DNA of 64,000 nucleotides from Neophaeotheca triangularis (GCA_054600435.1 BAAIJX010000024.1:248001-312000); one strand, 5' to 3'; positions 1,624 to 47,443 are shown, numbered from the stretch's first letter. The notes: generated by a model not told the origin, from the sequence alone. Made by a program: numbers and translations.

Positions 1624-1659
1624 CTACTCGCCCGAACTATCCGTATACGTTCATTTTGT

Positions 1660-10867: not shown

Positions 10868-10915
10868 TAATTGTTCCCATTCCCGGGGACGACACCCTAG
10901 CGCTAGGAACAATTA
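10868..10915. other. attP-like right-end/left-end junction
   Basis: TAATTGTTCCCA (10868-79) pairs with TAGGAACAATTA (10904-15), one RIP-type mismatch. Inner arms CCGGGG and CCCTAG flank a 6-bp spacer ACGACA (10889-94). Confidence 0.8.
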
Positions 10916-11109
10916 CAAGTATATGTATTATAAGACATAAGGGTGGTTAAAGTAGTACTACGTAGTCTAGGCTCTCTAAACTCCCTAAGACATACATTAA
11001 CTACGCTGCAACTTAGAGCGTAGAAAGCGAGCTACGAAATGCCCCGGCCCTCCCTACGAGTAAGTAGTATGAGCCGACGCCGTAGATACACTTAGAAGGT
11101 AAAGGCTTA

Positions 11110-11603
11110 TCTAATCGCGGCTAGAGAATTGCTCGATGTCGTTAGGCAGATCCTCGAGCAGTAGTGCTAAGTTCGTAGACATATTAGTTAGGAGATCTTA
11201 AAAAGTATTATAGAGGTAAGGAGAGACTTTATACCTCGGGCGGCCTTTATGCCTTCGATTGCAGCTTAAAGAGCTTCTAAGATGTCCTGTTGTCTGTCGT
11301 AGCTTCCGCGTTCGATAGCGCGCTCGAGGACGGCGACAGTTTAATTAAGGGTTACTAGTACTATAGTCCTATGCATGTTGCCTACCGCCTCGGCGAGCTC
11401 GGGATCTTCCTCGCTTCCTAAGGCTAGCACGTCGATAGTAGCTTCGATAATAGCGCTAGTTCGAGCGTCGGTAATGTCTAGACTCGGTTAGATGATTCTA
11501 GGCCCGACAAGATAACTAGAACTTACTATTAAAGGCAGCGTAAGGCCTAGCCACCGCGTAATACATAGAGTCGATGTTTAAGCGGATCGAGGGTTTAGCC
11601 ATT
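11110..11603 (-). pseudogene. Small two-intron cargo gene at the element's left end
   Basis: ATG GCT AAA CCC near 11603. GTAAGT/CTAAC/AG intron signals. Helical acidic product (EEDPELAEAVGNMH). Confidence 0.4.
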
Positions 11604-11967
11604 TTTAACGGTTCGAGCTAAACGTTAAATTGCTAGTAGTAGAACAGCGCCTAAGGCCCTATAACTACGACACGTCGGTAAGTACCTAATTGCATGGTTT
11701 TATCGTGTTAAAATCGGGTACTGCTAGCATGTTTAGCTCTAGACTACACCCTGCTAATGCTATTAATTATCCCTAAGGCATAACCTAGAAGGTTTACTAA
11801 GTACGGTCCCTTATTAATGTAGTAAAGGCCGCACCTACGTACAAGTCTAGCATTATGCGCATTCTAAACGGGCATTTCCCTTGTCTTCCTTATGATCGGA
11901 GTAACGCGCTAGACTAAATGAAGTAGGGCAGGTAACGTAGGGCTAAGCCTCCGGCGCGAGCCGCGCC

Positions 11968-12122
11968 TATTATAATATGTAGCGGCACGAACTCGATTAA
12001 TTGATTTCAAAGGACTAAACTAGGTACTTTATAGCAAAGCCTATAAAGACAGGTTGCAGCTTCTATAGCTTCTACCTTAGGCATACGATGTTACGTACTA
12101 TACTGTATAGCTTATTACAACA
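11968..12122 (-). repeat. Copia 3' LTR
   Basis: Matches 26097-26251 and is preceded by the PPT on the minus strand. Confidence 0.95.
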
Positions 12123-12309
12123 CTCTCCCTACTGTTAAGTAACACGTGAATGCCCTTTTTAGTAGTGACTATGTGAATTTACTACGTTTTACGGTAATTG
12201 CCGCTAACACGCCCTACTATATATTATCACGTAGAAGCTACTAGTGACAGGAAGGTATTACTATCACTTTTAGAAAGCTCCTAAAAGAACACAGCACTAT
12301 AAAAAGGCC

Positions 12310-13570
12310 TACTCCCCCTACTATAGTTCTTTAACCCTTCCTACTACTATAACTAATAAGTAGTCTCTTTACTAGTTGCCTTAATACTAATAGCTATACC
12401 TTCTACTAATACTAATAGCCCTTTTACTAATACTAGCTAACAATACTAATAACACTTTAGCTTTAGTACCTTTAGTACTAATAGCAGCTTTAGTATAGCT
12501 ACCGTTAACTAAAGCACGATAGGTAGTATAGGTAGCTCTAGTAGTAGTAAGAAGCTACTAACTAGTACTCCCTCTACTTATACTATATACGACCTAAACT
12601 AGCTAGCTACTTTAAGTAAGTTACTATAGGCTAGCCGTAAGAATTTCGCTAATATGTAGATAGTCCTTAACTATATCTAGCTAGACTTAGCTACTTTATG
12701 TAGAATCCGCCGGGTCGCTATTAACCTTAGGCCGGACAACGTTAAGCAAATGCTACTATAATTCCGTAACAATAAAGCCTAGTAGTTCTACGCCTCTAAT
12801 AAGTCCCTAGCCCTAAAGAATAAGCTAGAAATAAGGGTAGCTAGCAAGAAATTCAACCTGTCTTCTACTAAGAATACTAATTACCTCCCTACTACTATAA
12901 CCTAAGCTATTAAGGGAGGCAAAATTCATAAAGGGGATGTAGCTTACACTAGATGTAAGAAGGGTAACGGCCCTTAGAAGAATTATGTTACCTTAGAACA
13001 TAAAGGAAAGAAGTTTATAAAGGGAGCCTATAGTAACTATAGCTATAGTAACTACTTTGACCGATATGACTTCTCTTATAAGTATTACTAATACAGGCTA
13101 ATTTCCGCGGGAATTCTTCGCTAATATGTAGGTAGCCTATTAACTAGTCCTACGAACAAAGTCTTCGTAGGAAACTCTAGTATCTTTACTAAGAAGGATA
13201 GGGTTAATAGCTAGCTCTCCCGCTCCCCTAACGACTAGTAGATATGCTAAAGTGCTAATCCCTAATAGCATTAATTAGAGCACACTAGCTAGGGCTACTA
13301 CATTTACTTAGGCCTTAAGGTAAAGGGTAGATGTCTATAGTAGTAGGTCTACCCTTAATAGGGGAATAGGTCTTAGATCTATACTGTCTACTATAAGAGC
13401 TAGGTCTAGTAGAGAAAGTACCTTTTAGGGCTTCCTAACTTCTATAGGAAGTTCTTCTAGTTCTAGTAGTTCTTCCTCCTCTTTAAGCCTCTTAGTAAGG
13501 AAGGATAGTAAGAAGGATAGTAGCTCTAAGGATAGTAGCTAGGGTAGTTCTAAGGATAGCTAGAAAAAGT
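12310..13570 (+). pseudogene. Extra antisense ORF in the Copia element, DUF3716-like Cys-rich domain
   Basis: De-RIP translation of 12930-13075: VACTRCKKGNGPWKNCVTLEH.GKKFMKGAC.NCSY....RCDF, followed by an acidic/Ser-rich tail. Confidence 0.65.
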
Positions 13571-15687
13571 AAAATAAAGGAAAAGGGTAGTAGTGTCCTA
13601 TAAGGGTATTGTTTCTTAGGAGATAGTTCCCTAGAGTTTTAGTGTTTTCTAGGTTTTCTTAAGTTTTGTTTCTTAGGTTAGTATAAAGGAAAATGCTGCA
13701 TTATATAGTAGGTTTCTCCTAGGATAGTTTTCCGGAGTTAGTGTTTTCTTAGGATAGAGTTTAGAAACAAAGGGAATACTACATCCTATAAGGGTATAAT
13801 ACTCTCTAAGTAGGATGATCTTAAATCATCTAGTTAGGGGACTTTAGCTTAGTTAGACTATCTGCTAGCTACTTAGTAGTATTAATATATTTAACACTAA
13901 TAACCCCCTTCTTAAGCTATTCCCTATAGTAATAGTTTCTAAGGGAGGTGTGTTTTAATCGCTTTAAGTTAGTATAGTCTTCTATAAGTAGGATAGCTAA
14001 CTTGTTGTTAATATAAACCTTAATAGTTTTTAAGCTAAATTCTATTAAGGGCTAAAGTTTAAGGAAAAGATTCTACATCTAGTTAATTTCCCTTATAGTT
14101 TCTATTAATATAACATACTCTACCTTAGTGCTTAATAGGATAACTTCCTTCTATCTCTAAGATCTCTAGACTATAGGTGCACTATTTATGAAAATGGCTA
14201 AGCTAGATGTTAATCTAGATGTAGCTAGATCACCTATAAAATCTAAGTCTAAGTAGGCCTTAATAGAAATTCCTTCCTATCTCTTATAGATAAGCCCTCT
14301 ATCTGTAGTACCTATAACATATCTCTAGATGTGTGTTATAGCTATAATATGCTCCTCTAATAGGTTTTAAAGGAACTTTACTAAGTAGTTAACTATATAA
14401 GAAATGTCTAGCCTTATCTAGTTTGCTAGGAATTGTAGTTCCCTAATCATCTTATTAAAGATGTAATAAACCTACTAAGTGTATTACTTCTTAGAAGGTT
14501 TATATAAGCGGTTAAGTAGGTACTTAACTATCCTTGCTTAGTCTAGATTATGCCCTTTAAGTTTGTTAAGGGCATAATGCTTCTAGGATAGCTTAATAGT
14601 ATTCCTACTCTCCTTAATATATAGGCCTAGGAAAAGGTTAGTATCTACCTCCTTAATGCTATACTTCTTCTTTATCTCTACGATAAGCTACTTAATCTTC
14701 TTAGGTTTAGGGCTAAAGATCTAGAAGTTATCTATATGTATTAAAACTAGTATATTATTATTAGTAAAAAGATATGCATTAGACTTTGTCTGCTTTAGTC
14801 CTATTAACTTAAGATAGGATGTAGTATCTTAAAACTAGAGGTAAGCTACCTACTTAAGACTATATAAGCCCTTGTTAATCTTTATAAGCTTGCCCTTCTT
14901 ATCTTTAAGAATAAGTTTAAGTCCTCCTAGTGCCTAGATAAAGATCTGTCTATCTAGATTAGGATTTAAGAATACTATCTCTATATTAATCTAAGTTCTA
15001 CTCTATTTAAGCTAGAATGTAATAGCTAGGAGGATCCTTCCTGTTCCTAGTCTTAGTGTTAGTGTAAAGGTGTTAATATAGTTAATACCTTGTTTCTATA
15101 AGAATCCCCTTACTATCTATCTAGCCTTATACTTATTAATAGAGCTATCTAGGAGAAGCTTTAGCTTAAACACCTACTTCCCTATAAGTGCTCTTCTACT
15201 AGGTAGTAGCTCTAATTACTTAATCTAGGTAATTATGCTAGTAGATTTAAGGCTTTTAATCTCCTTAATTATTATAGCCTTCTACTAGCTTATATCCTTT
15301 CTACTAAATGCATCGTAATAGTCCTTAGGATTATTAGTAGCCTAGGTTATAGCTCCTATATATAACTACCTATAATTCTACGATTTTATAGGCCTACCTA
15401 CCCTTATATATATTAAGGTGTTACGACCGCGGTGCTAGCGGGACATCGGCGGCCTAAGCTGCGGAGTAGCTCGGGAGTACTAAGCGTACACACTACGAAA
15501 GTATATGAGATAGCTAACAGTAAAGTCTCCTGTCTACTATCGAATAGTTTCTATATCAAAGGACTATTACTATTATTACCATTATTACGCTCCGCCCTCG
15601 CTCCGCCGTAATCCCGACCGAGTCATAGTCTCGGTCTTATAATTCTATTCGATCTTAGAACCTTTTCAGGTTAAGATTCGCTCGGAC

Positions 15688-18600
15688 ATTATAGTACTAT
15701 CGCGCTCGCTACGCCCTCGGGTTAACGACGCTAACCTAGCGGACTCCCCTAACACTATAACCGGAGTCAACACCCCGTAAGAATAAGAAGAGGCGGCGAC
15801 GGACTAATATACGGTCCTTACTACCGCTATTACGGAACTCTAACAGCAATTAGTAGAGCGTATAGCGCCTATTTAGCGAGCCGCCGATAGAGCGACGGTC
15901 CCCCGCGACGAGTCCGAAAGAGGATATATCGAACTAGAGGACCCGGCGGACATTGCCCCTACCCTAGTAGCACGTAAGTAGACGGTAGACGAAGATCTAC
16001 CTACCGGCGTAACGATAAAGGAGCGAAAGGCTTACATCGATATCGAGAAAGCTTTTCGCTCGGCCGAACTAACGGTTTATAGGAGTTATCCTAATCTCTA
16101 AAAAGCATAGACGTTTATCTAGCAATACGAGCATATGTTTAAGACGTACCCTTATGTTTACTTTTATTAGTACGAGCATATCTAGTATGCCGTAGGCCGT
16201 CTATACGGCCGCGTCGGCTAGAACTAGGAGAGTAAAGAATCACGACTCGAACGCGAAGAGATGAAATGGCCTATGTTTAAAGAATAGCTACTAGATTAGA
16301 TCCTCGACCCCGAAAACTATGCTATAAATATAGCGTTTCGAGGTTTTAGACACGTTTAGGGAGCGACCTAATCTATTCACGACTACCTCTTATATATCGA
16401 AGACTCCCTCCGCGAGGCCGACGTCGCCCCGCTACTAGAGCATACGCTCCTTACCCTCGTCAAGACAGGTCTACGGGAAAATCTTAAGGCTAAGCTAAAC
16501 GCCTAGCTAACGGTGCTAGACAATAGGCATAACCTCGTCGCGCTTTACACGCGCCTCGACGAGGCTAGCCGTAGTAGCTAGGATACTAGAGGCAAGACGG
16601 CGGACAAGCCACGTAAGACCGACTTAAGAGGTTTTAGCTATAGGAAAAGAGAACAAAACTAGAGCATAAGCGACAATAACTCTAAACCGCGCTGCTAGCG
16701 TACCGATAGAATACCGGCGACCGGCATGAACCGCACGGGTACGACTAATAGTGGCGAACGAAACAACAAAGCCCTCGAAGAAAACCTTTGTTTTAAGTGT
16801 AGTAACAAAGGCTACTAGTAAGAAAATTGCCGAAAGGGAAAAGCTTAGCCCTAGGCCATTTAATTGTTAGCCTTAAAGGCTTAGGGCGGCAAGTAGGTAG
16901 TACGTTAATAGAGCGCCTATAGGCTGTCGTAAAGACATGCGATTATACCCGTAACGGGCTACGCTTCGAGGCCTATAGGCTTATCGATATAGGAGCGTAT
17001 TACAATGTCATCTCGGAAGACATCGCGGTCTAGTATAACCTGCCGATAAAGGGTGACCGGATTCATAGGCTACGAGCCTTCGGCGACGTCGAAGCCCTAA
17101 TAGTAGGCTAATGTTAACTCTATACTGAAGTCGCTAATTTAGACGGTATAGTTTAGACTATCCCGTAGATGTTCGAAGTAGTAAACTAGAAGGATTACGA
17201 AATGATTCTTAGAATGCCTTAGATCCGATCCGTAAAAGTATAGCTCGATTTCGCGTCGCCGCTAGTATAGTGGCGCTATAGCGGTGTGTACGATAAAGAA
17301 GAAGTCGAAATTATCGAGGCCGAAGAACTAGCCCGAGATATTAATAGTAGAGCATCTATCCTCGCCGTTAGCGTAGAAGACCTACGCGGGACCCTAGCGG
17401 AGCCGCGGGTGCCTAAGTAGTTAGTAGAGTACGCCGAGGTGTTTAAATTAGAGAAGGCGAAAGAGTTACCTCTATATACGCTTCATGACCACTATATCGA
17501 ACTAGTCGAGGGAAAAAACCCTCCTAGTAGACCGATCTACCTATGTTCTAAGCTAGAGCTCGAAGAAATGTAGTCGTAGATTAATAACCTGCTCGCAACG
17601 GACTGTATTAAGCCTAGTACTAGCCCTGCTAGCGTACCGTTACTATTCGTTAAGAAGAAAAACGGCAAACTTCGCATGTATGTCGATTACCGCGGCTTGA
17701 ACGAAATCACTATTAAAAACAAGCGTCCTTTACCGCTTATCGGTGAACTCTTAGATAGAGTCCGCGGATTAACGTGGTTTTCGAAAATCGATTTAGTTAA
17801 GGCATACTACCGTTTACGTATCGCCCGGGGCGACGAGTAGAAGACGGCGTTCCGCTATTAGTACGGCTATTTCTAATACAAGGTCATGCCTTTTAGACTC
17901 GCTAATGTACCGGCGTCGTTCTAGGCCTTTATTAATAAGGTGCTTATAGAGCTAGTTAATCACTACTACGTGGTATATATAGATAATGTTCTTATCTACT
18001 CCTGTACCGAATTAGAACACTGCGAACACGTTCGAGCGGTCTGCCGTTAGCTCGCCGACGCTAAGCTGTATACTAGCCTCGAGAAATGCGAGTTCATGGT
18101 CCGAGAGATTAGATTCCTTAGTTTTATTATTAAATCTACTAGAGTAGCGATAGAGCCCCTACGGGTAGCTATAGTACAAGATTAGCTAATGCTAAAGTCC
18201 TTAAAAGAACTCTAAGTGTTCCTAGGATTCGCGAATTTCTATCGTCGCTTCATCGAGGGATATATAAAGATTACCGCTCCCCTTATAGACCGCCTACGGC
18301 ATAGCGGCAGTGAATAGTAGCCACTAGGTAAAGATGCCTAAAAATCCTTTAAAAGGTTAAAGCACAGCTTCATTTCGGCACTAGTGCTACGGCACTTTAA
18401 CGCTACGCTAGAGACCCGCCTTAAGACCGATACATTAGGATATATATTAGGAGGCATACTCGCGTAGAAGCACTTAGACACGCTATAGCATCCGGTCGCA
18501 TATTACTCTAAGAAGCTTAAAGGGCTAGAGTTACGATATCTAGTGCACGATTAGGAACTACTCGCTATCGTCGAGGCGACACGCTAATAGTAGCACTATA

Positions 18601-20760
18601 TATTGTCGGCTAAGAGCAAAGTTTAGGTGCTTATAGATCATAACAATCTAAAGTACTTCCTATCGATAAAGAAATTGTCGGGCCGCTAAGCGCGCGCTAT
18701 AGAAGAGCTATCGTAATACGACATCGAAATCATATACCGTGAAGGTAAATTAAACCCTAGAGTAGACGGGCTCTCGCGCCGTCCTAATATAGAGGCCGAT
18801 AGAGAATTGAGTAGGGCGGAGATACTACCTATACTAACTAGGCTTTTCGCTCCCCTAGCGGGCTACTATAAGGCCGCCGAAGTTCCGGCGAGTAGCCGTA
18901 AGACGGCCGCTAAAGATAGAGTAGAGATCCTATCTATGTCGCTAGGGTACGTAGCGCTAGTAAACCGCCGGGCGTTAGCCGCCTCGCTAGTAGGCTACAT
19001 AATAGCTACTAGAGATACCGGTCCTCTAAACAATAAGCTTTAGAGTAATGATACCGTGTACACTAAGCGAACGCTCTAAGGGGGAGGTAAACTAAACCTG
19101 ACTAGCTCCGTCGCTATAGTAGCGCTAACCTATTATGACCCCGTAGGTAAGTAGCTAGGTATACTCGCTATCACCGAATTAGACATTAGAGAGCCTAACA
19201 TGGCGGTAGACCGAATTGACCTTAGAGCGGATATGTTACGCGCATAGTAGGGAGACCCCTTTACTAAACGCATTCGTAAAGAGATCGACGAGGGATAGTA
19301 CCGTAGAGACGCTAATAGCGCCGCGCCTACGTGGTCGGTTAGTTTTACAGGACTTCTTAAGATTAATGGAAAGGTGTATATGCCGCTAGTAGAAAGCCTA
19401 CGGGCCGCCGTACTAAGCTACTACTACGAGGACCTATTAGTAGGATACCTAGGAGTAGGGAAGACTAAAGCCGTCTTCTACAAGGAGTTTTAGTGGTCTA
19501 AGTAGACTAAGGATGTCGAAGAGTATGTCCTTAGGTGTAATACCTACTAAAGACATAAGTCGCGCCGCTACCGGCCCTATAGCGCACTATAATCGCTAAG
19601 GGTTCTAGGTACTAATGAGATCTTTAAGCATTAGTCTATAGACATAGTGGTTAAGTTGCCTGTTGTAGAGACATATAAGGGCGAAACAGTCGATTCTGTG
19701 TTAGTTATTGTTAACCGCTTCTTAAAGTTCGCGAGGTATATCCCTATTAGCGAAGCGATAGGGGCCTACTAGCTAGCCGATATTTTCGAGCACGAAATTC
19801 TTACTAAGTTCGGTAAGCCAAAATCGATTATAACTAATAGAGGCAGTATATTCACCTCCGCGTTTTAGACAGAGCTCCTTTAGTATTAGAAAACCGAGCG
19901 CAAGTTATCGACGGCGTACTACCCTTAGTCTAACGGGTAGACGGAGAGGCAAAACCAAACAATAGAATAGTATCTACGATGCTTTGTTAACTTTGCATAA
20001 ACAGATTAGCCTTATTACCTCATATAGGCTAAATTCGCCCATAATAATAGCATAAGCGCATCGACTAAAGTGTCGCCGTTCTTTACCGTCTACGGGGCGG
20101 AGCCCTAACGGCCTAGCGGCGTTACGGATAACGCTGTCGGAGAGGGAGGCAGCGAACCGATAATCCCTAACCTCTAAGAAAGAACCGAAAACTAGAAAGC
20201 AATTCGCGAGGTCGTCGAGGAGAACATTCGGCACGCTGTTAGCAAGTAGGCGGAATACTACAACCGAAAACACGATCCTATAGTATTTAGTGTCGACGAC
20301 GAGGTTCTTATTTCCGCGAAAAACCTAAAAACGTTAAGACTAACTAAAAAGTACTCCTCGCGTTATGTAGGGCCCTTTCGAGTCATAGTAAGGGTCGGAA
20401 AACAAGCATACCGATTAGCCCTACCTCTATACCTTAGAAAGATCTATAACGTCTTCTATATCTCCCTCCTCGAACCGTACTACTAACGCGCCGACTTTGC
20501 ACCGCTAGCGGAGCGAGAAGTCGACGGAGGCGGCGAATAGGTTGTCGACGAAATAACGGCATCCGGTCTAGACGACGATGGCGACAAGATGTACTAGGTT
20601 CTTTAGAAAGATTAGCTAATAGAAGAGGGTACCTAGGAGAAAGAGAAGCATCTAAACAACGCGAAAGAAGCGATAGTAGACTTCGAGTAACACTAGTAGA
20701 CCTACGGCGGCGCGAAAAAGAAGCGTAGAAAGAAAACATAAAGCCCGAAAAAGAAGAAAA
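15688..20760 (+). pseudogene. Gypsy gag and pol with C-terminal chromodomain
   Basis: Conserved motifs are readable through RIP stops. Confidence 0.92.
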
Positions 20761-20879
20761 CTATAGGAAAAGGACGTAGTACACAAGCTTCTTAAGTAAT
20801 AGCTACTACGGATAGGCTAGCGATAGGATAACGGCGCTTATAGAGAGTACGCAAATGATTAGACAAACGCTTAAGCCCT

Positions 20880-22210
20880 AGTGTCTAACTCCTTCGCAAC
20901 ATTAGTAATATTAGCCTATAGCTAATCTTCGGCACTAATAGACTTCTCCGCATTCTCTCCTACTAACGGAGCGGCGTCGTCCCTACGGCGCATCCTAAGG
21001 AAGCCTAAGATACTAGAAGGCTTCTTCGGAGCCTTATCCTCCTTATCCAACTCCGACGAAGAAGAGCTTTCCCTAGAAGATACCTCTAGCGGCGTACCGG
21101 CGTCGCCCCTACTACTCTTCTAAACTAGACCCTTAGTCTCTACTACTAGTACCTTAGGAGCTACTACTAGCGCCGGCGTACTAACGGTCTTATCGTAAGG
21201 CGGCGACTTACTAAGACTAGGAGTCTCGCGTAGCGGCAAAGAAGAAGACGCGGCGTAACGGCAGCTAGACATCTCGCCGATAAGTACGGACATTTCCGTA
21301 TAGTAGACGGCGACAAGTCTCTCGATAGTATCGGTGACGATCGTAGCGAAGTCGCGAGTTTAATCCGTGATTAGGCGTGCTATATCGTGCGGAGTTAAGA
21401 TCTTATCGTTATTAGGACCGGAACGACGAAGGCCCCCTATCGGGATAACGGCGCGGTTATTCTTATAAAAGTACTAAGAGACCTTAGCGTCGACTTCTAA
21501 GACCTTAAGGTATATCGGCGAATCGGCGTCGGAACTACTAGTACGGTTAGCGCGATAGAGTATAGCGGTATGGTTTATCTAGACACGGTAGGCGCGCTAG
21601 CTAGCGAGGTTAGGAATGATCTAAAGAGACATTAGTAAAGCTCGTAACGACGACGGAGCTACGGCGGGCTTACCTCGATACACGATTGCTTCGCGTTAAA
21701 GTAGGTGTTATATACCGATCTAGTCGCGGAAGGCACTATCTTACATAGCGGGACGAAGTCGACGGACCTAGCGAGAACGTTGCTTAAGAGCTCCTTAATA
21801 TAGCGCGAACAACGAGGGCGATTAATATCGATAGGAGTAAGCTCCTTACCCTTATCGATGTCGGCGAAGCGACGGAACGCCGGCGTACCCTTATTAGACC
21901 TACTCTCTTCACTATTATTACCCTTAGTATGCTTACGTTTCGAGCCCGTACCCTTAACGGCCGTAGCGCGCTTCGTACTAATACCCTCCGACTTCAAACC
22001 CTTCTTAGTAGACTTCGACTCGTTAACTAGATCCTTTAACTCCTCCTCTATAAAGCTACTAGCGGCGATCTAACGACGGCCCTTAGTTATAAAGACTCCC
22101 TTAGCGACAATCGCGCTATCTATAGTAAAGGCACCCTTACTATTAACGGCTATAGCGCTAACGCTATAGTCGACTAGCGCCTTTAGACGCTTACTAACAC
22201 GTAGAGGCAT
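20880..22210 (-). pseudogene. Extra antisense ORF in the Gypsy element with a Cys6-like motif
   Basis: ATG at 22210. ORF-track peptide RCSR(C)IKELL...LCK.VPSATRSV(C)NT(C)FNAKQSCIE, followed by an intron-like segment (GTAAGC...CTAAT...TAG). Confidence 0.55.
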
Positions 22211-26096: not shown

Positions 26097-26251
26097 TATT
26101 GTAATATATAGCGGCACGAACTCGATTAATTGATTTTAAAGGACTAAACTAGGTGCTTTACAGTAAAGCCTATAAAGACAGGTTGCAGCTTCTATAGCTT
26201 CTACCTTAGGCATGCGATGTCACGTGCTGTACTGTACAGCTCATTACAATA
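26097..26251 (-). repeat. Copia 5' LTR
   Basis: Matches 11968-12122 and is followed by the PBS. Confidence 0.95.
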
Positions 26252-34990: not shown

Positions 34991-36250
34991 ATAATCATAA
35001 CACCTTCCTAAACTAAACAATTAGCTTTAATGGCTACGCTATAGACCGTCTAACAGCTTCGCGTGCGGCCTAAGTGCGAGGACTAGGCTACTAAAGTCAC
35101 ATAGTTCTCCGAAACAATCTAGTCGTCTATGTGTAACGCTTAAATGCCCTTCTATAGAACGCATCCTTAGCTTTTAGAGGCGTTCGGCTCTCTTCTAGAG
35201 GACCGAGAATACTTCGAGCTAGCTAGTATAGTTATACTAGAGTTTAGAGGCTCTAGTAGTAGTAATAGTCTTTAACGTAAAGACCCCGCCATTACCCGGC
35301 TCCTCGAAAGGGTTAGCCCGTACATTTAGTACTCTATCGACGTCGCTAAAAGTTAGAGCTCTTTCGATACTAGCGAGTTCTAGGCCGAAAAAAGATTGTT
35401 CTATGAAGCGGAGATGTATAGAGTCCGCCTCCTCTTACATCATAGGCAAACCTTTACCGTAGAGGAAGAAGACTAGATTAACTAGTGGCTCGACGCCTGC
35501 CCTCTAGTACTACAAAGGGCGACAATGTAGTGATTTATCTTGCATCTTCACTAGTAAGTTAACGAGTGTTAGCGATCCGTAGTCACTATTACTTACGCTC
35601 TAGTATAGTTATCCCGATTCTCTTAACTCGGTCGGCTAACGTACCTGTTCATAGTATTTAACATACTAAAACTTTAAGAAGTAGAACTGTTTAGGGAGAC
35701 TAAGGACGACTATCGTAAGTCGGTAGGAGGGGTAGGCCTTCTAGTAGCTTATAAGTTTCCGGGATAAGCAGTTAGAATGGCAGCTCGCCTCGCTGTAGCT
35801 TTGCCTAGGCGATATGCGCTATTATTAATGTAAAACTCTAGTTATCGCAGTATTTAGGAGCTGCGAAAAGATAGGCCCGTCAGTGTTTTAAGGTCATATT
35901 AGTTTTAGATTCATAGGAGAGACTTAGGTAGCGTTCGAAGGTTATTTGTAAACATAGTAGGCTAGTCTCTAAACCACTTCGACTCTATCCTCGACCTAAT
36001 ACACCTAAAGATACTCCCGCATCCTATACCTCTTATATAGTAGCTAGCATCCTTTTAAAAATCAGCATTATACCCGTAGAAACCCTACGATAGCTACGAG
36101 CGTTTAGACCTACTACCGCCCCTTCACTCTTCGTCGCCTATAGTAACGCTGCTTTCGGCCACTTCTACTAGAACGGTGTAAGCTAAGTCTCCTAATTCGG
36201 TAGAGGCTTTAGTCTTAGGGGGTTTGTCGGTCGTAAGAGAAGCGTCTTGC

Positions 36251-36473
36251 TATAAGACCGAGACTATGACTCGGTCGGGATCACGGCGGAGCGAGGGCGG
36301 AGCGTAATAATGGTAATAACAGTAATAGTCCTTTAATACAGAAACTATTCGATGGCAGACAGGAGACTTCACTGTTAGCCATCTCATATACTTTCGCAGT
36401 GTGTACGCTTAGTACTCCCGAGCTACCCCGTAGCTTAGGCCGCCGATATCCCGCTAGCGCCGCGGTCGTGACA
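36251..36473 (-). mobile_element. Solo LTR of the Gypsy family
   Basis: Reverse complement of 15419-15641, 223 bp, flanked by TSD CTTGC/CTTAC. Confidence 0.95.
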
Positions 36474-39400
36474 CTTACTTACGGTAGCGGCGATAGTACC
36501 CGAGCTCTTCGTACTTATCGACGACCTTTACATCGATTCTAAGCGACTAGTCCGAGTTAAGCTATGTAGATATTTGTAGCTTTAGCGTACTACGGACATG
36601 TTAGCCGTCTTCGGTTAGCTTCCGGGTAGTAAAGACTATAATGTTTTCGGTAGGCATTATGAGATGATTTGGTTACCTATAAAGCTAGTTAGTACGGCGG
36701 GACATCTCGTGTGCTTCTACCCTATTTACCTTTCAATTGCTTACGAAGTCTACTTAGTAGAGATGATAAGCCCTTACCTCCTATCGGAGTAGCTATAAAC
36801 CCTCTATAACCACGAAGGTAAAGGGGAGAGGGAGGGAAGTTTCCTATATGTCATAAAGGCATAGAGTAGAAAGGAGTCTTTTTCGTTATAGTAAACCACT
36901 ACGACATTAGCATAATAGAAGACATATTGTAATAGCTGTCATTGTTAGCGATATATATGTAAGCGACTCCCGCGCCAAATTATACGAACCTTAGTACTAA
37001 GAATTCTAGAACACTATAGCAAAATCAAAATGTAAATAATCCTGCTCCTTACTATCGCTATACTCGGTTTCATCGGCATTATGCTAACTATCGCTCTAGC
37101 TATGCTTCGTAACATTATCTAGTTCCTTATAAACCTAATCACCGAAACCCTAAGCCTCTACTACTACATAATCACGTAACCTAAATTCTAGGAGGGAGTC
37201 TTTAGAGTATATAACAAACTGCTACAATTTAACGCGAGCTTTGTCGAGCTACCCGTCCCTATCGTCGAATACGTTAAGTAGCAGTGGAGAACTAACTGTG
37301 AACCGCCCCCTAACCGTCTAAGCGCCTAATCCTAGTATTAACTACACTACGAATAGCGCCTAAGGGGACATTAGCAATTATTAGGAGGTGACAGTAAGGG
37401 TTCCTATACGGAGGAGAAATTTGTCGTTTAGGGACTTAGGGATCGGCACATAGGACGACTTAGTATCTACGAGAATATTTAGCGTTTTTCTTAAGATTAA
37501 CTAAGGATCTATAGCTTCCGGGGTTCTAGGCGTTATTCCTATCTAGGGCGAGGGAGGATAGGAGGCTAATAGCTTCCGTTATAGGCCTTAGCCTCTTTCC
37601 TACTCTTAATCTAGTTTAGCTTGAAGATCCGGGTCTATACAAAGTTCAATCCGATTACGGGAACCCTAAGGTAGTCTAACTCGCCCCTAATTAACTTTAG
37701 ACTAAGCTATCTAGAAGATACTTCAGCTAGAAATTCTAGCGTCTACAAATTACCTAGTCCGAAGCGTACGCGCCCTATAAAGGCTACCTATAACTCCTGA
37801 CTTTAAGCTTTATAAGCGTAACGCTAGCCCGCCTCCTACGAGCCGCGCTCGGTATATTGACCGAGCTTAGCCTAACACCGAAGGAACATGTCCTCGTCCG
37901 CCTCGACGTATAAGTTAAAGTCATCTACAAGCTACTACAAAGTAGCTAGCTACGCTACACTCGGCGTGGTTATGCCCTAGGGATAATAAGGTCCTCGTCG
38001 TACTTAGACAGCTATAGCTTACTAAGCTCGGGGGGAGACGGTTAAGCTAGACAGAGTAATGACTAGTATACCGCGCGGCCCTACTAGGGGGCTAATCGAA
38101 GTAGAACACGGCATAGTCGCTTGACGAGGCGTGATGTTAAAACGAGCGGACCGTAATAGCCCGCGCTATAGAAGTCGCGACGTAGACAGGCTGCTTAGCT
38201 AATAGACGAAAGGTGTAGAGGCTACAAGTAATAGCTCTACGTCTACGCAGCTTCCTCTTATCTAGTAAGAGGCGAGGCCTCTTAGGTAGCGCATTACTAG
38301 AAATGCGCGTAAAATGATGATAGTTAGAGGCTATAGGGGGAGCTAAATAGCCTTGTCCGCGAAGGTTAAGGTAACGAGCTCGGGTTCCGAGGCTAGGACG
38401 CCCCTACTAAGCTTCGTAGAGGCCTGTACTAAGGCAACGCGAGGTAGATATACTAAGACGACAGCTCGGCGCTTAATAGTAGTAATAGCCTTCGTAGGCC
38501 ATAATGCTAAATCGCTACTAGGATTAGACGCCTCGATGAGGTAAAGTAAGAATTTAACAAACGAAGAGACACTCATTCTATTTAATTGACTATTAGCTTC
38601 CCCGAACTCTAGACCCGATAAACCGCTAGGCCCTTACCTTTCTAAGGAGCATTCGTTCTTAAGCTTAAGTAGCCTAAGCACAAAAAACCAAAGCAAATAT
38701 CCCGGCATAGCCTAACCTTATCGCGAGGTTACTATTACTTAGTAACTCGAGGCTAATAATCGCCGCTTTCGCCGCTCCTCTTAAGGCCCTACTAAAGCGC
38801 GCCTCCTTTCCCTTCCTTTTCTTTAACATAGATATCGAGTAGACTTAGGTCGAAACTCCCGTCCGCGAAGGCATAGCCTACTACGCGAACACGCTCGTTC
38901 AAGTTATCTACTATAGCTTAATCACTACTACTTTCAGAATTTGAGTTTTAGACCGCTGTCGCCGCTGTCGCTACTGTTATCGCTGTCATCGCTATCGTGG
39001 AGTGTGTAAGTACATGAACGGAACGGCCCGAGGGGTATCGAGATAGACGGTGACAAGAAGAGATCACTAGTATAGCACGTGATGTCTGTCTTCTAGAACA
39101 TGAACAGGGCTTTACTCGTGTCTTATTGCCGAAGCTCTCTTAAAACTAATAGCATACGGCTATACGCCGTCACTACACATAGGTTGTACGCGGGTCCCCT
39201 TAGTTGTCCTTGACTTACCTAATCGGTCATGCCGCTAGACTTGCCTATAGCTTGTCCGCTAAGGGAGGTCGCTTTTAGTGTTATTATAGAGGAATTATCT
39301 CTCGAGAGACCTATCGATGTTACATTATCAAGAGGACCGGTAGTGGCATAGTTATATTCTTAAGATAGCGTAAAAAGATAGCTTGTAGGCGGATCCGTCC

Positions 39401-42400
39401 TAAGACACTTTTAGCGGAGCTTCTAGCCGACCCGTACAAATAGCCATTACTTTACACTAGAACAAGGTCATCGCTTTAACCCTATTAACGACTATGCGGT
39501 AGAACGTAGAAGCTTGGTAAGAGGATAGGTTAAAAACCTCTACTAGTAGGAATCGCTAAAGCAGATAACGAGGGCAGTATACCCGTCGTAGCCCCCTTTC
39601 TATCGTCGACGTAGGCAAGCACTTTTACCTTTAAAAGCTACCGGTCTCTCCCTAACTACTAGCTAACAAATCATTAAAGCCAAACATAGTACAACTCGTA
39701 TAACGCATTAGGAACGCACTCTTATAGGCCTACGTCGCTATAGTAGTAGTAGGTATCTCCGCCGTAGTACTCGACGACGACCCTATCGCTATAGCTAATG
39801 TCCGAAGCGTTATTACGCGGGCCTAACACTAAATCTCGCTAGTTCTCTACATTATTCTTAACTCTAAAGCGCTAAAATTCATATAGACTCGCCTCGAAAA
39901 CCTCTTCTCTACCGCTTTCACTACGATCTAGACAGAGATGTCGTTTCGCTTTAACTCCGGCCTAGAAGCTTCTACCCTTACTATATAGGACTACGTAGCT
40001 ATCGCGCTTTACGTGTTAACGCTACTAGCCGCCTACAAGACATGCCGGGGCCTATATCGCTTACTCTAGTATCTCGCGCGGTAAGTGTTTAATTAACTAA
40101 TTCTCCGAAGTATAGCGCTAATGAAACTTACATCGCTATAGTCCCGTAACGGCATCGCCTACGGCATAGGACATTAGCGAAGAAGACTACGTAAGCTTCT
40201 TAAGGCGGACGCGAGGCCGTGTTAGGAAGCATAGTCATTAAGTAAACGGCGGTTCGGTTAGTTTAGTATAGTTAGTTAGTTAAGGGGAGAGGGGAGGGGG
40301 GGAGGCGGGGTAGAAGGGGTGACTAAGGTGTCGATTACTAGGCTTTTACCGACCTCGTTATACGTTCTAGGGTTTCCTACATTCGTCGAGCGAATTAGTA
40401 CAATATAGTGTTTCGTTTCCTTCTATTAGAACCAGGCCAAATTTCATAGCTTACTTCTACTTTACTTACTTATAGACTTTTCGCCGCTACGAGTTTATAT
40501 AGCTATTGCCTCCTAACCCTTTACTACCTACCTTTTCAACCTCCCTACTTTACTATCCGTCTATTAGGCTCTCCTCCTACTTAGGGCTTATAGCTATATT
40601 GTCCGTTCCGAAATAGCGTCCGTAGCGCCTAGGCCGAACTAGGGGTTACCTAGTGGGGAAGTCGTTTAATCGTAGCAACACGGTGTAGAAAGGTGCTTCT
40701 TATAGCCTTTAAGCTCCTTAGACATGCGTATACGCTAATTACTATAGCTTAACAACTTTTCCTACCGTACTAGAGCAAGCCTTAGCGTATATATATCCCT
40801 TCCGCCCTCGATCCTTAGTCCTTCTCTTCCCTATCACTTTAGTTAGCTTCTAACTCCTAAACTTTGTACCTAGACTACGTAGACTTCCCATTTCTATCCT
40901 AAACCGCTAAAAACCCACTAATAAAACCCTAAACACTCCTAATATGGACGCTAGGCGCCTAACGGCACTTATGTCCTTCACGGCGGTTAGCGGCATGACT
41001 GCTTACCTCTTTACCACTATGCTTAACGAAGGCTCCCGGGTCTAGGCTATTACTACTATTACTACCTTTATCACCGACCTTAGTACTAGCGGCCTCCCTA
41101 CTAAGCTCTTCGACTACTACGTTAAACCTACTGTTGTCGGCCTCTTCGTCGTCTTCCGTATCGTTAACCTCGTCATCGTCGACCTAGTTACCGCCTACCT
41201 TATCGACATCGTCGACTTAGCTAACTATCTCTACCTCGAGTTCGCATACTGCTATACTAAGATGATGTACGCTCACGGTCCGATCGTCGTCTAGCCCGCT
41301 ATTCTAACCTTTATCCTCCTCTTCTACTACGCTGTCTACGCCCTTAAAGCGTGTACTATCTATCTCGCCGGAATCTTCTCTAAGCTCTACCTCACGTTAA
41401 GCGCCGGATTAATCGGTCGTTACACGACTATCGCTAATCGGTAAGCCTAGTTTCCTACTTCTCGCATCTTATATCTAGCTAACTATATAATAGTGTTAAA
41501 GTCTCCGTCTTCGGCGACCGCGAGTAAGTAACTAAGGGATTAACGGTTAAGTAGACGGTAGATAGGGGATTAGGTAGATAGCGGTAAGGCGTGAAGGGGT
41601 TAAGAGTTAGAGGAGCTGATAATTCGGAGCCTTTTAGAGCATGTTACGAGTTGCATTTTGTTCTTCTATATTGTTAGCAAGCATTATCACGATAACGGCA
41701 GCTAGGTTTATAGGTTAGGTATTTAGACGTTCGGTATTTTCATTTAGTTATCTAGACAGTCACTTAGTTTTCAAGGCCTTGTTCGTAAAAGCTTTTCGAG
41801 TCGTTCGTCACGTGCCCTTAAGTCTACTAAGTCGGTAGGAACTACTACATATGTAGTAGTTAGCGCGTACATTACCTCCTACGTAAGTACATACTAGATT
41901 TGATATATATACTATATCAACTACTATAGCACCTCCTCGTTCCTTCTTCGATCTACCGATTCGGGACTACTCGTATACGAAGGAGGAAGACGGTAAAGAT
42001 CGAGCGGAGGGCCTTACGAAATAGGCTAACGATTTCGAGTAATAGTAGAGGTAGTAAGAGATAAGGTATCGTGTTACGTAGACCTTAAAACTACAAGTAC
42101 GAGTATAGAACTAAGCTAATGTCAAATATTAGATTAAGAGAGCTTTAAGTAGTAGTAGAGAGGTAGGAGACCGTACACCGCGAGGCCTTAACAAGTAGTC
42201 GAGAAGAGCTAGAAAGCGTTAAACGCCGTCTTAATAGGGAACTCATTGCGTTCATATAAGACGAGTAACCGAATCGTATAGATGTATGGCATAAAGAATA
42301 GAAGCGAAGATTTCTTGCTACTATACGTAAAACCGACAAATCTAATTAGAGAGTCACTAAAGGCGAGCGTACCCCTTAAGCTATAGTAACCTTAAGGGTA

Positions 42401-45036
42401 GCGTTAAGCATCTACATTCCTATCTTAATTCGTACGCGCTACGCTTGTTCACGCTAGAACTTTTTATCTAGGGGCTAATCGCGCTATAGGCTAAGCTTGC
42501 CGGTAATCGCTAATAGTAGCTAGAGCGTAGTCGCAGTTTCTAGCTCTAGCTCGTAGCTTAGGTGCTTTAAAAGCTACCTAGTACCTACTAGCTTTCGCGT
42601 ACTAGGCAATGCCTTAAAAGGAAACGCCGAACGTGTCAGTTAAACTAGCTAGTAAAGAAGGCCTAACCACTACACACTCTTTTAGATCAAAGCATCGGAC
42701 GCCCCTAACATGAGTTACCGCCTTTAAGCTAACTTAAGTGCCCCTTAGCGTAAACGTAAAGTATCTTTCGAGACAGATCTTCTTAAGGTCGACGACGGCG
42801 AAGTCGAAAGCGCTATTTAGGACTATAGCACTTAAGTGGCCGGGGCCGTAAAGCGCACTAAAACCACGCAATCCACAGACCTATACACTCCTTATAACAC
42901 CCGTATCCATAAGTCGAAGCTATCGCGTTCGCACCTCGAGAGCGCTACTAGCATAGAGCGAGTGTTTAAGGCTATTAGGAAGGGAGCTATCGCGGTCGAC
43001 AAGCTATAAGAGAGACAAAAAACAACATCATTAATTCTACTAGCCTTTAAGCTAATGCCGAGAAGGAAGCCATTTAGCGAGCGACTTGCTTACCTCGAGA
43101 CTACTACTACGCAATACAGTAAGGTGATCGCCGACCTCTAGAAAAAGGATACTAAAGGCTACTCTAAACCTTACGATAGCAAGGACTACGCGGTACTGTA
43201 GGGCAAGTTTAGTTAGGATAATCGAATCGACATACTTCTTATAGCTACGGACTCGTAGACTATAGCATTAGACGAGATTTAGGTGCTCTTTTACCCCTTC
43301 TCGAGCCTAGTCTTGTCCTAAGTATCCTGCTACGGAAGACGAAGGATCGAAGGCGAAGGAGAGGGGACAGCTCGGCGCTATCTATAGTTTTGCATCCTCC
43401 CGCTAGTCTGCATTACCGCGCTACGGAGGAGCGGAAAATGGATCGTAGGCAAAGTGAAAGCTAAGGGCATGCGGTATAGTAACGTTATCCTTTAACTCTC
43501 CTACTTACCGGCCTCTACCTTACTTTAAAGAATTTGCATCGTTTACTAGCCCGTGTATTCCGCACACTTTTTCGCTATGTCCGCCGTAAAAGATTTATAG
43601 CCTACTATTACTGCCCTCCCTACTATGCCCTTACTACGGTCCTTTAGTAATGCTTCTAGCACGGCGAGTATTAGAATATAATGAAGACGAAGTAAGTTTT
43701 CATGTTGCAACATTAATACTAGACTACTAATTCAAGAGTACAAAATAGCCATGTAACAAAATCCCCGTACAAAAGCCCTTACCTGTCTATAGCACCTCCC
43801 TAGTAAGGATAATCCCTTACTAGGTCCTAATCTAAGTTCGAGAGGCGTACGATAAAGAACCTAGAAGGTACTCTACAAACATTCCATTAATCCTCGTAAC
43901 ATCTCCCCTTCCCCGTTCTCCCGCTAACCGGCGCCCTAAAGTGCCTAGACAATCCTTATACCTTCGTTCACTGCCGGCCCTTCTAAACCTCCGTAGGGAA
44001 CAGGCTATTTATCTCGATGCGGTCGCGGGCACTTATGTCGTTAATACCGGACCTGTCGACGATCTTCTATAGCTAATCTAACTTGAACTAAAGGCTCCTT
44101 AGCTTTATGTCGTAGCTATCCTAGCGATACTCGATATAAGCTAGGCGATCGTCGAGTGCCTATAGGCGCTTAGGATTAAGGGCGGTCTTTTGCATATACT
44201 TAATTATAGCTAAATTATATTAGAGTTTCTTATAGTTAGCGTCGTCGTCTTTCTTAGAGGAAGCTTGCTTTTGCTTTAATAACATCACTAAGGACGCGGA
44301 TGCACGACGGGCAGTAGTAGAGGCCTTTAAGACCCTCGGCTTACCTTTAAACTTAGTGCTTAAGCCGGGCGATTTTGTATATGGGCGCGACGGACGGCTA
44401 CTAGCCGAGATGTTGTTAGAGATAAGGTATAAGCTTAGGAGAGGGTCTACGAACTAATCTTCTAACTCTATACTAGAGCTAGACATAGCTATAAGCGAAG
44501 GTCGGCGAGTATACGACTATATGGTTAGGAGAGTCGAGCTAGTTAAGGAAGGGTGTTAAAATCACGTGTAGAGTGAATAGGTCAGTATAGCACGCTTCTA
44601 CATGCAATAAAAGTTAGATTCTGCCTTATAGGTTTGTTTAAAGACGCCTACTTACGACAAGGCGCGTGTAAGGTAAGCGATGTTTAAAAGCCTTCAAGTA
44701 ATTATTGCCTTTATAAGCCGCCGTTAAAGTTAACGCTCATTAAGAGCCGTTACAAACGAGATGCTAACACTAACGGATGCTGCCTAGGCTTTACTAGGGC
44801 TATTAGCAGTTTATTAACATCTACGTATTCTCGTAATAATAGCGTATCCGCGCCTTATCTGCCTTTATAGTCCTAATGACTAGGGATATGCACTTGACAT
44901 ATAGGCATCCTATTCGGGTACGGGCTTATAGAGTAGCCTATAGCAGCTCGTTTGCCGTAGCGCTATCGACTAGTAGACTACGGCAAATTCAATCTTCTCC
45001 CCTCTCTTAGTAGTACATTAGTTGTTATAGGCGACG

Positions 45037-47217
45037 ATGATGTCTCCCTTATCGAAACGATAGCCGCTCAAAATCCTAGAACTAGTACTTCTACATAGTA
45101 GAGGTGCGCTGTTCGAAGCTAACGTCTTCTCTATACTCCGAAAAAGCCTATATATCGTCCGGTCGTTTAAATTCTCCCCTACTAATGGCGCCGTTAACTA
45201 CATAAGACAGTACGGCCTCTAAGACGATTACACTATAAGATTTCATCACCTTAATTCCTAGCTTCCTAGACAGTAGAGCTAGTACCTCCTCTTCGACGTT
45301 AAATCCTCCTTAGACACGCTCGACTATTACCTCGTGACGGAACTAGAGCAAAAGCGTCTAGTTACGTTCTACATTGCAATGTACGCTTCTAACCCTTCCT
45401 TCGTCGACATGTTCCTAAATCTAGACTAAGACATGCGCGACACGGTAATAAGTAGTACGAAACCTGATAACGACTACGGCTCGTAAGAAAAGCAGGAGGG
45501 CAAAATGTCAGTGAACGTTCGACGGAAGTCATAGCTACGAGGCGGCACCTTCGGCATACTAGACTAAAGCTCCGCGCCTTATCGCATGCTAATCGCATTA
45601 CTTCTAGTTACTATCGAAAACATTAGGCGATACGTGACCTATAGCTAGACGTACATTAACCTATAGACCGGTGTGATATTTAAGAACTAGAAACCTATCC
45701 TCGTAATGCAACCTATATGGCTAAGGCCTATAGAGTATACAGCGCACTTTACAGCCTATAAGTTAGCTATTCACATCATGAGGTGCGATTCGTACGCCCG
45801 TTAACTAAACTTCCGCCTAATTAACCTCGTACCACGACTCGCGGACTTCAGTTTCCATGGCTGTCTTATCTAGTACAAAGTAGACAACATCCTACGGCTC
45901 TCGAGCACGACTTTTAATGACGTGCTTATGTCGCGTAAAATAAGGACTAGTACCGCGTATCATTACTTTAACACATTCGAGCTTTTTGACTTCTTTTTCT
46001 ACGAGTTCGAGATTAAGGCTAAACTACCTCGTAAAGTCTTCTTTTTTATACCCGAGAGCGAGTTCCCCGATTCGTTCTACACTAAGACGGTAATACGTGA
46101 CAGTTTCGAGCTATACCGAAAACGTTTCCTTATCGACCTTAACGACGACCTTAAGTAGATAACAAAAGTACAGGACATCATATAGCGTTACCTATAGGCT
46201 CGGAAAGCTAGCTATCGCCCCCTACGGGAGGTAGTAGCTAACCTATTAGTGCTACTTTTAGGCGATAGCGACAATGACAACGACGACGACTACTACGGCC
46301 TCGGCAACGGCGATTACGATTCGTTAGCAGCGTATAGGAAGTAGAAAGCAAGCAAACATAAAGTAGGCAAGTAGGGGGTAGCGAACACGAGTTCTAAAGA
46401 GCATACTATACTTATAAGGTCAGCCTTTCGTCACGGTCGATTCTTCTATAAGGTCATAGATCGATACGCTCGGCGAAGGTCGATACTAGTCATCGTTTTA
46501 GCTCCGAATTATACACTTAGGGACTTTAGTGTCTACCGCTATAAGTAGACTCTTAGTAAGTAGTACGACTAGTTTAAACGAGGTAAGCCTCCGTAGGTCG
46601 CTAATACGCTACCGAGTAGCATGCTAATAGTCCCGTTACTTTTCTTTTCGTAAGTCTATAAAGCCGGCTTTATTAGAGCTAAGCTTAGCATACCCTAATT
46701 TAGACGTCTAGATACGAGTACCCTTAGAAGATTAGTCCTTTAGGATATCGCCGGCTATAACACTACTACCTATATGCCTTTAGTACCCGCAATAGTGCCC
46801 TTACAGGACATCTAGCCTACCTAAAGCTAGCGAGAGATCTTCTACGAAAAGACTAGGGCGGAAGGGGAGTAGTCCCTTATAACTCTAGAAGTCTCCTACT
46901 TTCTTAATACTAGTCGCTTCCTATCCGAGTATTCTGTTAGATTAGGTCCGCAAAACTACTCTCGCGCAGGTAAGGATAAAGTGTAGGGTGAGGTTTAGAC
47001 TCTTCTCGAGCGTTTTACGGGTCTTTAATCGTTTTAGTATCTACCGGGTCTAGAGCGTAATCCTACGCAATTGCGCTGTACTTTACAAACAATCTACTAA
47101 GCACTTGCTAACTAGCAGACCGCCGACCTCGAGTAGGTCTAAACTAGAGCGGATTCCGACCGAGTTAATATAAGCTATAGAGCATATTTAGTCGATTTGC
47201 TTACTAATTCAAACTAA
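45037..47217 (+). pseudogene. RIP-inactivated tyrosine recombinase (DUF3435/captain-like), copy 2
   Basis: One reading frame of about 725 codons interrupted only by TAA/TAG. Motifs occur in tyrosine-recombinase order: LIRSAFRHG (R at 46429), LGDFSVY...FKRGK (K), E(Y/H)SVRSG (HxxR at 46930-46941; TAT may be RIP'd CAT), then QTGADSDRVNVSYRAY (candidate catalytic Y near 47176-47187). Boundaries approximate. Confidence 0.68.
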
Positions 47218-47323
47218 ACTTTTACCCTATAGTACTTGTTTACTTTAATTCACTTTAAAATCTCTAAACACTAAAAAAAACTATTCAATGTCAAAATAAA
47301 CAATATCCTCTAAGGAAAATACT

Positions 47324-47330
47324 AAAAAAA
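47324..47330 (-). terminator. Probable Pol III terminator (T7) for the tRNA, located inside the element end
   Basis: First run of at least 5 T on the minus strand downstream of the tRNA, 35 nt after the discriminator base. Confidence 0.6.
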
Positions 47331-47364
47331 TTGTTATAGGCTTAATTTTTCCCATTCCCGGGGA

Positions 47365-47443
47365 CGACCAACATGGGACTCGAACCCACAACCTTCCGCT
47401 AATCAGTTAGGAGGCGGACGCTCTACCATTGAGCCAATCGGCC
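47365..47443 (-). tRNA. tRNA-Arg(CCT) with a 7-nt intron
   Basis: GGCCGAT-TG-GCTC-AATGGTA-GAGC-G-TCCGC-CTCCTA[ACTGATT]A-GCGGA-AGGTT-GTGGG-TTCGAGT-CCCAT-GTTGGTC-G folds into a full cloverleaf with A and B boxes. Confidence 0.93.

Follow-up and report, generated by a model that had tools for sequence, protein, structure and literature searches.

We analysed a 64,000-nt stretch of the Neophaeotheca triangularis genome (GCA_054600435.1 BAAIJX010000024.1:248001-312000; ‘the window’ is the whole of this stretch), in which a long block of DNA altered by repeat-induced point mutation (RIP) ends inside an intact gene for tRNA-Arg(CCT). The right-hand part of a large unit is present twice in this block, in the same orientation, and its downstream copy is the one that reaches the tRNA. 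A preliminary description had taken the unit for a fungal tyrosine-recombinase element, possibly a relative of Starships, integrated at a tRNA 3′ end in head-to-tail tandem. The features on which the analysis turns are the following.

2245..10893, + strand: upstream copy of the right-hand 8.65 kb of the unit, 93.3% identical to 38719-47368
10868..10915, no strand: junction site of the two copies, right end ...CCCGGGGACGAC joined to left end ACCCTAGCGCTAGG...
38719..47368, + strand: downstream copy of the right-hand 8.65 kb, ending 4 nt inside the tRNA
47365..47443, − strand: intact tRNA-Arg(CCT) with a 9-nt intron (Rfam RF00005, ARAGORN)

The repeat, its edge at the tRNA and the copy junction

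The two copies constitute the sole long repeat in the window and align over 8,656 columns. They differ by 564 substitutions, 553 of which (98%) are transitions, C-to-T and G-to-A and mostly in CpA/TpG context, and by only three indels of 1, 6 and 6 nt. Given the transition bias in this context and the small number of indels, we conclude that the copies diverged by RIP. All segments of 1-47368 have TpA/ApT values of ~2.0-2.1 and (CpA+TpG)/(ApC+GpT) values of 0.29-0.59, as against 0.74-0.80 and 1.10-1.20 to the right of 47368; thus, both the nature of the copy differences and the indices of the block relative to its flank are those of a RIP-mutated duplication. The break in composition is sharp, falls at 47368/47369 by the RIP indices and is also seen in 200-nt bins. 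Throughout 1-47368 we found no stop-free frame of at least 150 codons and no intact open reading frame (ORF) of at least 150 aa.

The tRNA into which the block runs is full-length. On the minus strand, Rfam model RF00005 aligns to it from 47443 to 47365 (model positions 1-71), scoring 51.8 bits against a gathering score of 29, and ARAGORN calls the same tRNA at 47362-47444. Its anticodon loop, CTCCTAA, identifies it as tRNA-Arg(CCT). With its end at 47368, the repeat reaches 4 nt into the tRNA (CGAC; GTCG on the tRNA strand, tRNA positions 70-73). The earlier placement of the RIP edge at ACGAC beside an intact tRNA-Arg therefore stands as far as the end point and the completeness of the tRNA are concerned, but the overlap is 4 nt rather than 5. 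The four letters that the block contributes are native to the tRNA and pair with the 5′ acceptor strand, and the last 23 nt of the tRNA, followed by a T, recur in a tRNA on a metagenome contig from an unrelated fungus (L001). Taken together, the acceptor pairing and the L001 match argue that, however the block arose, the tRNA is the native one and intact. With up to three mismatches allowed, the 3′ part of the tRNA has a single match in the window, the tRNA itself.

A T-run may serve as the RNA polymerase III (Pol III) terminator of a tRNA gene. The first such run here (T7, 47330-47324, minus strand) lies 35 nt downstream (35-41 nt past the 3′ end), inside the RIP block; in L001, a T6 run begins 4 nt past the end of the tRNA. 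L001, the sole locus found in a metagenome scan with the 3′-terminal 23 nt of the tRNA, was considered as an orthologous empty site and rejected, being another tRNA gene in a fungus that is not related. Its tRNA (2425-2523) has the last 23 nt in common with the window tRNA-Arg, while the body differs and the intron-like insert is much longer. A run of a related strain (X2) covers 47340-56000 and leaves 36668-47339 uncovered at a likeness of at least 85%, missing cover that we do not count as a finding. Contigs labelled X4 match the tRNA body and two short stretches only.

The right-end motif CCCGGGGACGAC occurs in two exact copies in the window and no more, and the upstream one (10882-10893) ends at 10893, exactly 36,475 nt from the end at 47368. 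At this second end the repeat is joined to the left terminus of the unit, and the junction 10893|10894 is flanked by a perfect 10-nt inverted repeat, TAATTGTTCC (10868-10877) and GGAACAATTA (10906-10915), with arms 28 nt apart and a centre 2 nt off the junction. The preliminary description had reported precisely this, namely the same end some 36.47 kb upstream, joined to DNA with an inverted repeat, and in this respect it was correct. When 20,000 positions were drawn at random from the RIP block, 49 of them had an inverted repeat as good or better with its centre no more than 3 nt away. A 12-nt perfect palindrome, CCTAGCGCTAGG (10896-10907), starts 2 nt past the junction, with 32 palindromes of this size in the 47,368 nt of the block; both statistics are post hoc. 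These structures argue that 10894 is a true terminus or a recombination-prone site and not an arbitrary point, and they are compatible with a circle-junction or an attP-like site.

The terminal motifs of the unit are ...CCCGGGGACGAC on the right and ACCCTAGCGCTAGGAACAATTA... on the left. No terminal inverted repeats were found beyond the 10-nt arms, and neither 2245 nor 10893 shows a visible target-site duplication. A candidate long terminal inverted repeat was rejected: its score of 51 lies within the range of shuffled sequences (mean 37.6, maximum 57) and the alignment is not terminal. As a separate observation, 13 nt to the right of each junction there is a similar pentamer, CGAAC in the T-arm of the tRNA (47381-47385) and GGAAC in the left-end arm (10906-10910); in register, 5 of 10 letters agree, which is within chance.

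Extent of the second copy and composition of the unit

Within the window, contiguity of the upstream copy is limited to 8.65 kb, as the DNA to its left is unrelated. The claim of a head-to-tail tandem is accordingly borne out for an 8.65-kb copy in the same orientation and no further by the window itself. We checked the tandem arrangement by aligning Logan contigs of the probable source run (X1) to 36001-56000. A second set of X1 contigs carries C>T and G>A differences of RIP type over 36531-38361, and one contig joins 36245 to 36474, that is, without the solo long terminal repeat (LTR) present at this place in the window. The source strain therefore holds a second copy of 36.2-38.4 kb outside the window, in the form of loose, unplaced contigs. 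Depth in X1, which as a sum over contigs is a rough guide only, is 270-350 over 36.7-38.7 kb and stands at the same level over 38.7-47.3 kb, where both copies lie in the window, compared with 122.5 in the single-copy flank. Because depth is equal over the two intervals, the outside copy appears to stop where the in-window copy begins. The simplest reading is a single upstream copy, interrupted by inserted DNA that ends on the right at 2244, and hence a head-to-tail pair of at least 11 kb. On this reading, both the solo LTR and the insertion at 2244 postdate the duplication.

The remaining parts of the block are listed below.

1..2244, no strand: RIP-mutated DNA foreign to the repeat unit (RIP indices 2.09 / 0.29), without a match in 2300-47368
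10894..11965, + strand: left-terminal segment with a stop-riddled frame, ATG at 11039 (+)
11966..26249, − strand: nested Copia-type LTR retrotransposon with a Gypsy element inside; 155-bp LTRs at 11966-12120 and 26095-26249
15419..23148, + strand: nested Ty3/Gypsy LTR retrotransposon; ~223-bp LTRs at 15419-15641 and 22926-23148; target duplication TAAGG
26250..36250, no strand: core of the unit, without a recognisable gene (0 Pfam or PHROG families in six frames)
36251..36473, − strand: solo LTR of the same Gypsy family, target duplication CTTGC / CTTAC, in this copy only
36474..38718, no strand: core of the unit, with a second RIP-diverged copy in the source strain, outside the window

The segment 1-2244 matched nothing in the rest of the RIP block, either by blastn or in a RIP-collapsed k-mer comparison, and had no Pfam match in six frames. 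Most probably it is the right-hand portion of DNA that was inserted later and broke the upstream copy at the counterpart of 38718/38719.

About 14.5 kb (~40%) of the 36.5-kb unit consists of nested Copia and Gypsy DNA and the solo LTR, and once these retroelements are removed the unit's own DNA amounts to ~22 kb (10894-11965, 26250-36250 and 36474-47368). The assignment of the nested parts as LTR retrotransposons follows from LTR pairs and a reverse transcriptase in both and from a target duplication in the case of Gypsy. The Copia LTRs are 92% identical to each other, and its RVT_2 domain (E = 8.5e-22) lies on the minus strand at ~14.5-15.2 kb. Pfam domains of the Gypsy element comprise RVT_1 (E = 1.6e-26), RT_RNaseH, Integrase_H2C2 and SH3_Tf2-1.

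The Gypsy LTR family is a high-copy one: summed depth over 36001-36667 reaches 2863 in X1, compared with the single-copy value of 122.5, and 1345 in X2. An air-metagenome run (X3) matches the window at this LTR only, over 219 nt. In the Copia interior, shortly past the right Gypsy LTR, lies a minisatellite (23213-23645) of ~33-nt units (...CTCTCCCTTAGGAGAGGCTT...), each with a small palindrome.

Evidence for and against an integrative element

We tentatively favour, among the readings considered, a site-specific integrative element with an unrecognised enzyme, now a RIP-inactivated, low-copy relic beside tRNA-Arg(CCT). A circular or tandem form of such an element would have recombined conservatively with a short core at the 3′ end of the tRNA, which would have been kept intact; the core would be GTCG plus the first trailer base, that is, ACGAC on the + strand. 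A second unit would then have entered, or arisen at, the same site, leaving an attP-like junction made up of the right end, the core and the left end with its 10-nt inverted arms. RIP in sexual cycles would have destroyed both copies because the DNA was duplicated, and retrotransposons would later have inserted into single copies. We infer the whole of this history, the recombination mechanism, the circular form and the presence of a recombinase gene included; what we observed directly are the two ends, the structure of the junction, the RIP pattern, the nested insertions and a second copy of 36.2-38.4 kb.

Several observations lead us to favour an integrative element. Repeat and RIP signature both stop at 47368, 4 nt inside a full-length tRNA. 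The junction sits on a 10-nt inverted repeat beside a palindrome, neither of which a random breakpoint need have. The copy number is low. The second copy in X1, the form without the LTR and the equal summed depth fit an interrupted tandem. Finally, the T-run of the tRNA is 35 nt away and inside the block, as opposed to 4 nt in L001. Of the proposed tRNA-targeting, circle-forming element, then, the defined ends, the structured second terminus and the RIP-mutated copies are in place, and the proposed mechanism is unsupported.

A set of results weighs against this reading, and the most extensive of them concern coding content. All frames were read with X at every stop on RIP-mutated DNA, conditions under which a decayed captain could escape. 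Pfam returned no family in any of the six frames of 38719-47367, even at E <= 10, none in 24901-38718 outside the retroelement domains and none in 10894-24900 outside the two retroelements. The last 3 kb of the upstream copy (7894-10893), which was mutated independently, gave none at E <= 1. PHROGs, which includes many phage integrase families, had no match in 18 frames. An exhaustive phmmer search with 1,200 residues of the +1 frame (26252-29851, where the left-end frame resumes beyond the Copia insertion) yielded nothing at E <= 0.001 among 1.84 billion proteins. Word-seeded searches found no homologue for the left-end frame (11039-11965) or for the right-end frames on the minus (45686-47185) and plus (45166-47085) strands, and sequence searches of PDB gave nothing meaningful. 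Equally RIP-mutated Gypsy and Copia reverse transcriptase domains in the same block were, by contrast, detected easily.

Additional comparisons agree. PF11917 and PF00589 had no match, at the thresholds tried and in any frame, in the terminal 3 kb of either copy or at the left end; Phage_integrase, Resolvase/Recombinase and PHROG integrase models likewise matched no frame, and neither Myb/SANT nor Starship accessory families nor cargo domains were recognised in the unit. The left-end and right-end regions show no similarity to each other at the protein level, only LTR matches. Sensitivity is limited by RIP, to the extent that the Gypsy integrase core itself was missed, but a DUF3435 domain (~400 residues) would probably have been detected nonetheless. 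With no domain in ~22 kb where RIP-mutated retroelements are readily found, the labels ‘tyrosine recombinase’ and ‘Starship’ are unsupported. The preliminary description had placed a recombinase-like pseudogene about 150 bp from each end, and no family or homology match was obtained near either one; the stop-riddled frame starting at 11039 is probably the left-hand pseudogene that was meant. Neither a tyrosine recombinase nor a Myb/SANT or cargo domain was detectable in the six frames of 10894-47367, 1-2244 and 7894-10893.

Reading frames could not be told apart by their decay. When the stops shared by the copies were counted, every frame had 189-230 of them and none had a run of at least 450 nt, and scans of stop density likewise did not separate the frames. 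A stretch resembling ‘CPV(R/I)ALLRVL’ on the minus strand, ~560 nt from the right end, is recombinase-like by eye only and was ruled out for want of Pfam, PHROGs, word-seeded or PDB support. The most protein-like frame of the unit lies at 45451-46590 on the + strand, with ~4% stops and without detectable relatives; at one position, the upstream copy has TGG (Trp) where the downstream copy has TAG.

The timing of the duplication also speaks moderately against a self-catalysed second integration. From CpA/TpG sites kept in both copies or in one, a site-independent model gives a per-copy RIP probability since separation of ~0.39, and RIP-type TpA shared by the copies is far above the prediction for parallel mutation. 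The (CpA+TpG)/(ApC+GpT) index inferred for the time of separation is 0.58, compared with ~1.15 in normal DNA here. These values suggest that an already mutated, dead sequence was duplicated, and host recombination or gene conversion between tandem copies fits such a history better than self-integration does. Alternatively, site heterogeneity and gene conversion between tandem copies may have inflated the number of shared mutations.

Geometry adds three more points. The tRNA shares no more than 4 nt with the block. Between the two inverted arms there are 28 nt, a spacing that does not match a tyrosine-recombinase core. The left end of the array, with any flanking repeat there, lies beyond window position 1, and no empty site is in evidence. 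A dead relic cannot reveal its own mechanism; the geometry described here is largely real, and the interpretation as an integrative element is half supported.

Alternative origins, known systems and the right flank

Host-mediated tandem duplication is the strongest alternative, and we regard it as a real possibility. According to it, some 22-36 kb were duplicated within an old, transposon-derived, RIP-mutated and AT-rich block bounded by the tRNA, and RIP followed. Template switching or breakage, at the palindrome on one side and at the Pol III-transcribed tRNA gene on the other, would have given rise to it, and an element-encoded recombinase would never have existed. There are exactly two adjacent copies in the same orientation, RIP is confined to duplicated DNA, no gene of any kind was recognised in the unit, and the ancestral RIP index of 0.58 suggests prior degradation. 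In yeasts, palindromes and tRNA genes are both known to be fragile and to act as breakpoints of rearrangements, so that both structures seen here are plausible places of breakage. Moreover, because RIP stops at the edge of a duplication, this origin yields the same geometry automatically. It does require the right breakpoint to have fallen within 4 nt of the tRNA 3′ end by chance or through fork stalling, and the junction to have fallen on a 10-nt inverted repeat (49/20,000) beside a 12-nt palindrome. An old resident block would also be expected in the related strain.

Comparison with RIP-mutated tandem duplications and AT-rich regions of filamentous ascomycetes is similarly divided. The transitions (553/564), the sharp edge, the nested LTR elements and the lack of an ORF of at least 150 aa are all shared with them, while an edge within 4 nt of a tRNA end and a structured copy junction set the present locus apart. 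If it is only a RIP-destroyed tandem duplication, it represents ordinary genome decay, and it would then call for caution, since the edge of a duplication or of RIP at a tRNA gene, even one accompanied by small inverted repeats, can look like an integration site.

A more far-reaching version of the integrative-element reading, which we consider unlikely, is that the unit is a fungal counterpart of genomic islands: a ~22-kb circle-former that would integrate conservatively into the last 4-5 nt of tRNA-Arg(CCT), restoring the tRNA, and would use an attP-like site with 10-nt inverted arms, whose spacing of 28 nt is closer to the sites of large serine integrases than to a tyrosine-recombinase core. 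To have gone undetected, its recombinase would have to differ too strongly from DUF3435 captains, Cryptons and phage integrases, and the element would belong to an undescribed class of eukaryotic mobile DNA, preserved here solely as a tandem relic killed by RIP. Like bacterial genomic islands, integrative and conjugative elements and prophages, the unit has its boundary inside the 3′ end of an intact, restored tRNA (repeat end 47368; tRNA 47365-47443), and its junction consists of right end, core and left end in the form of an attP. It differs from them in its eukaryotic host, in the lack of an integrase gene found at the att-like site, in a tRNA overlap of just 4-5 nt and in inverted arms 28 nt apart. 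In full-text literature searches, which returned mostly listings and abstracts, we came across no fungal element described as integrated at the 3′ end of a tRNA.

Cryptons, the fungal tyrosine-recombinase DNA transposons, are a few kb long. They are proposed to move by way of circular intermediates and site-specific recombination and have no long terminal inverted repeats, traits in which the unit, read as an integrative element, would resemble them. Cryptons are, however, defined by a recombinase gene, none of which is detectable here, and the unit is ~22 kb in size.

That the unit is a genuine Starship, with a DUF3435 captain either too heavily RIP-mutated or located in the unseen part of the upstream copy, strikes us as improbable. 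Size (~22 kb of own DNA), low copy number, defined ends and RIP would fit, as would a known preference of Starships for conserved Pol III genes (5S rDNA) and the palindromic targets of the Enterprise type, according to the accessible portions of two Starship papers (PMC11162782, PMC9156397). Against this stand the lack of a PF11917 or PF00589 match in the terminal 3 kb of either copy or at the left end, and the lack of accessory families and of any recognised cargo domain. In addition, the targets named in those portions are 5S rDNA, AT-rich DNA and short motifs, with tRNAs figuring there only in bacterial analogies or in methods (PMC9156397, PMC11162782). Structured or palindromic target sites are described for some Starships, and insertions into 5S rDNA are internal and disruptive, again in the part of the text accessible to us (PMC11162782). 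A comparison with the 5S-rDNA-targeting Voyager, Enterprise and Arwing families of Pezizomycotina Starships gives a large low-copy fungal element with defined ends, a Pol III gene and RIP as points of likeness. As differences, the RIP-mutated frames hold no detectable DUF3435 captain, cargo or accessory families, the target would be the extreme 3′ end of a tRNA that remains intact, and a head-to-tail pair is not described for Starships in the portions of the literature searched.

Equally doubtful is the reading that there is no tandem and that a transposable element of an ordinary kind, at least 11 kb long, occupies two or three separate places, one copy lying beside the tRNA and another inserted into unrelated repeat DNA at 10893/10894: the upstream contiguity of only 8.65 kb, the unrelated 1-2244 and the derivation of the second copy of 36.2-38.4 kb from unplaced contigs would allow it, but depth is about twice that of the flank over both 36.7-38.7 and 38.7-47.3 kb, as for one interrupted copy, no transposase or reverse transcriptase was found in the unit itself, and a target-site duplication is seen neither at 2245 nor at 10893.

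Should site-specific entry, which we prefer tentatively, be the correct explanation, it would extend the ‘safe-haven’ targeting of Starships at 5S rDNA to tRNA genes and bring the classic layout of bacterial islands to a eukaryote. Intact relatives could be sought with the help of the ACGAC core at tRNA-Arg(CCT) and of both terminal motifs.

To the right of the tRNA, the normal DNA carries ordinary genes, and over 50.3-54.0 kb the related run X2 differs from the window by ~1-1.6% in the listed pieces. The gene intervals of this flank are as follows.

53117-54750: xanthine/uracil-type (purine) permease, two ORFs, probably split by an intron
55544-56884: DUF3431 protein
59662-61485: PALP+CBS protein (cystathionine-beta-synthase-like)
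62075-63088: 3-hydroxyisobutyrate-dehydrogenase-like protein

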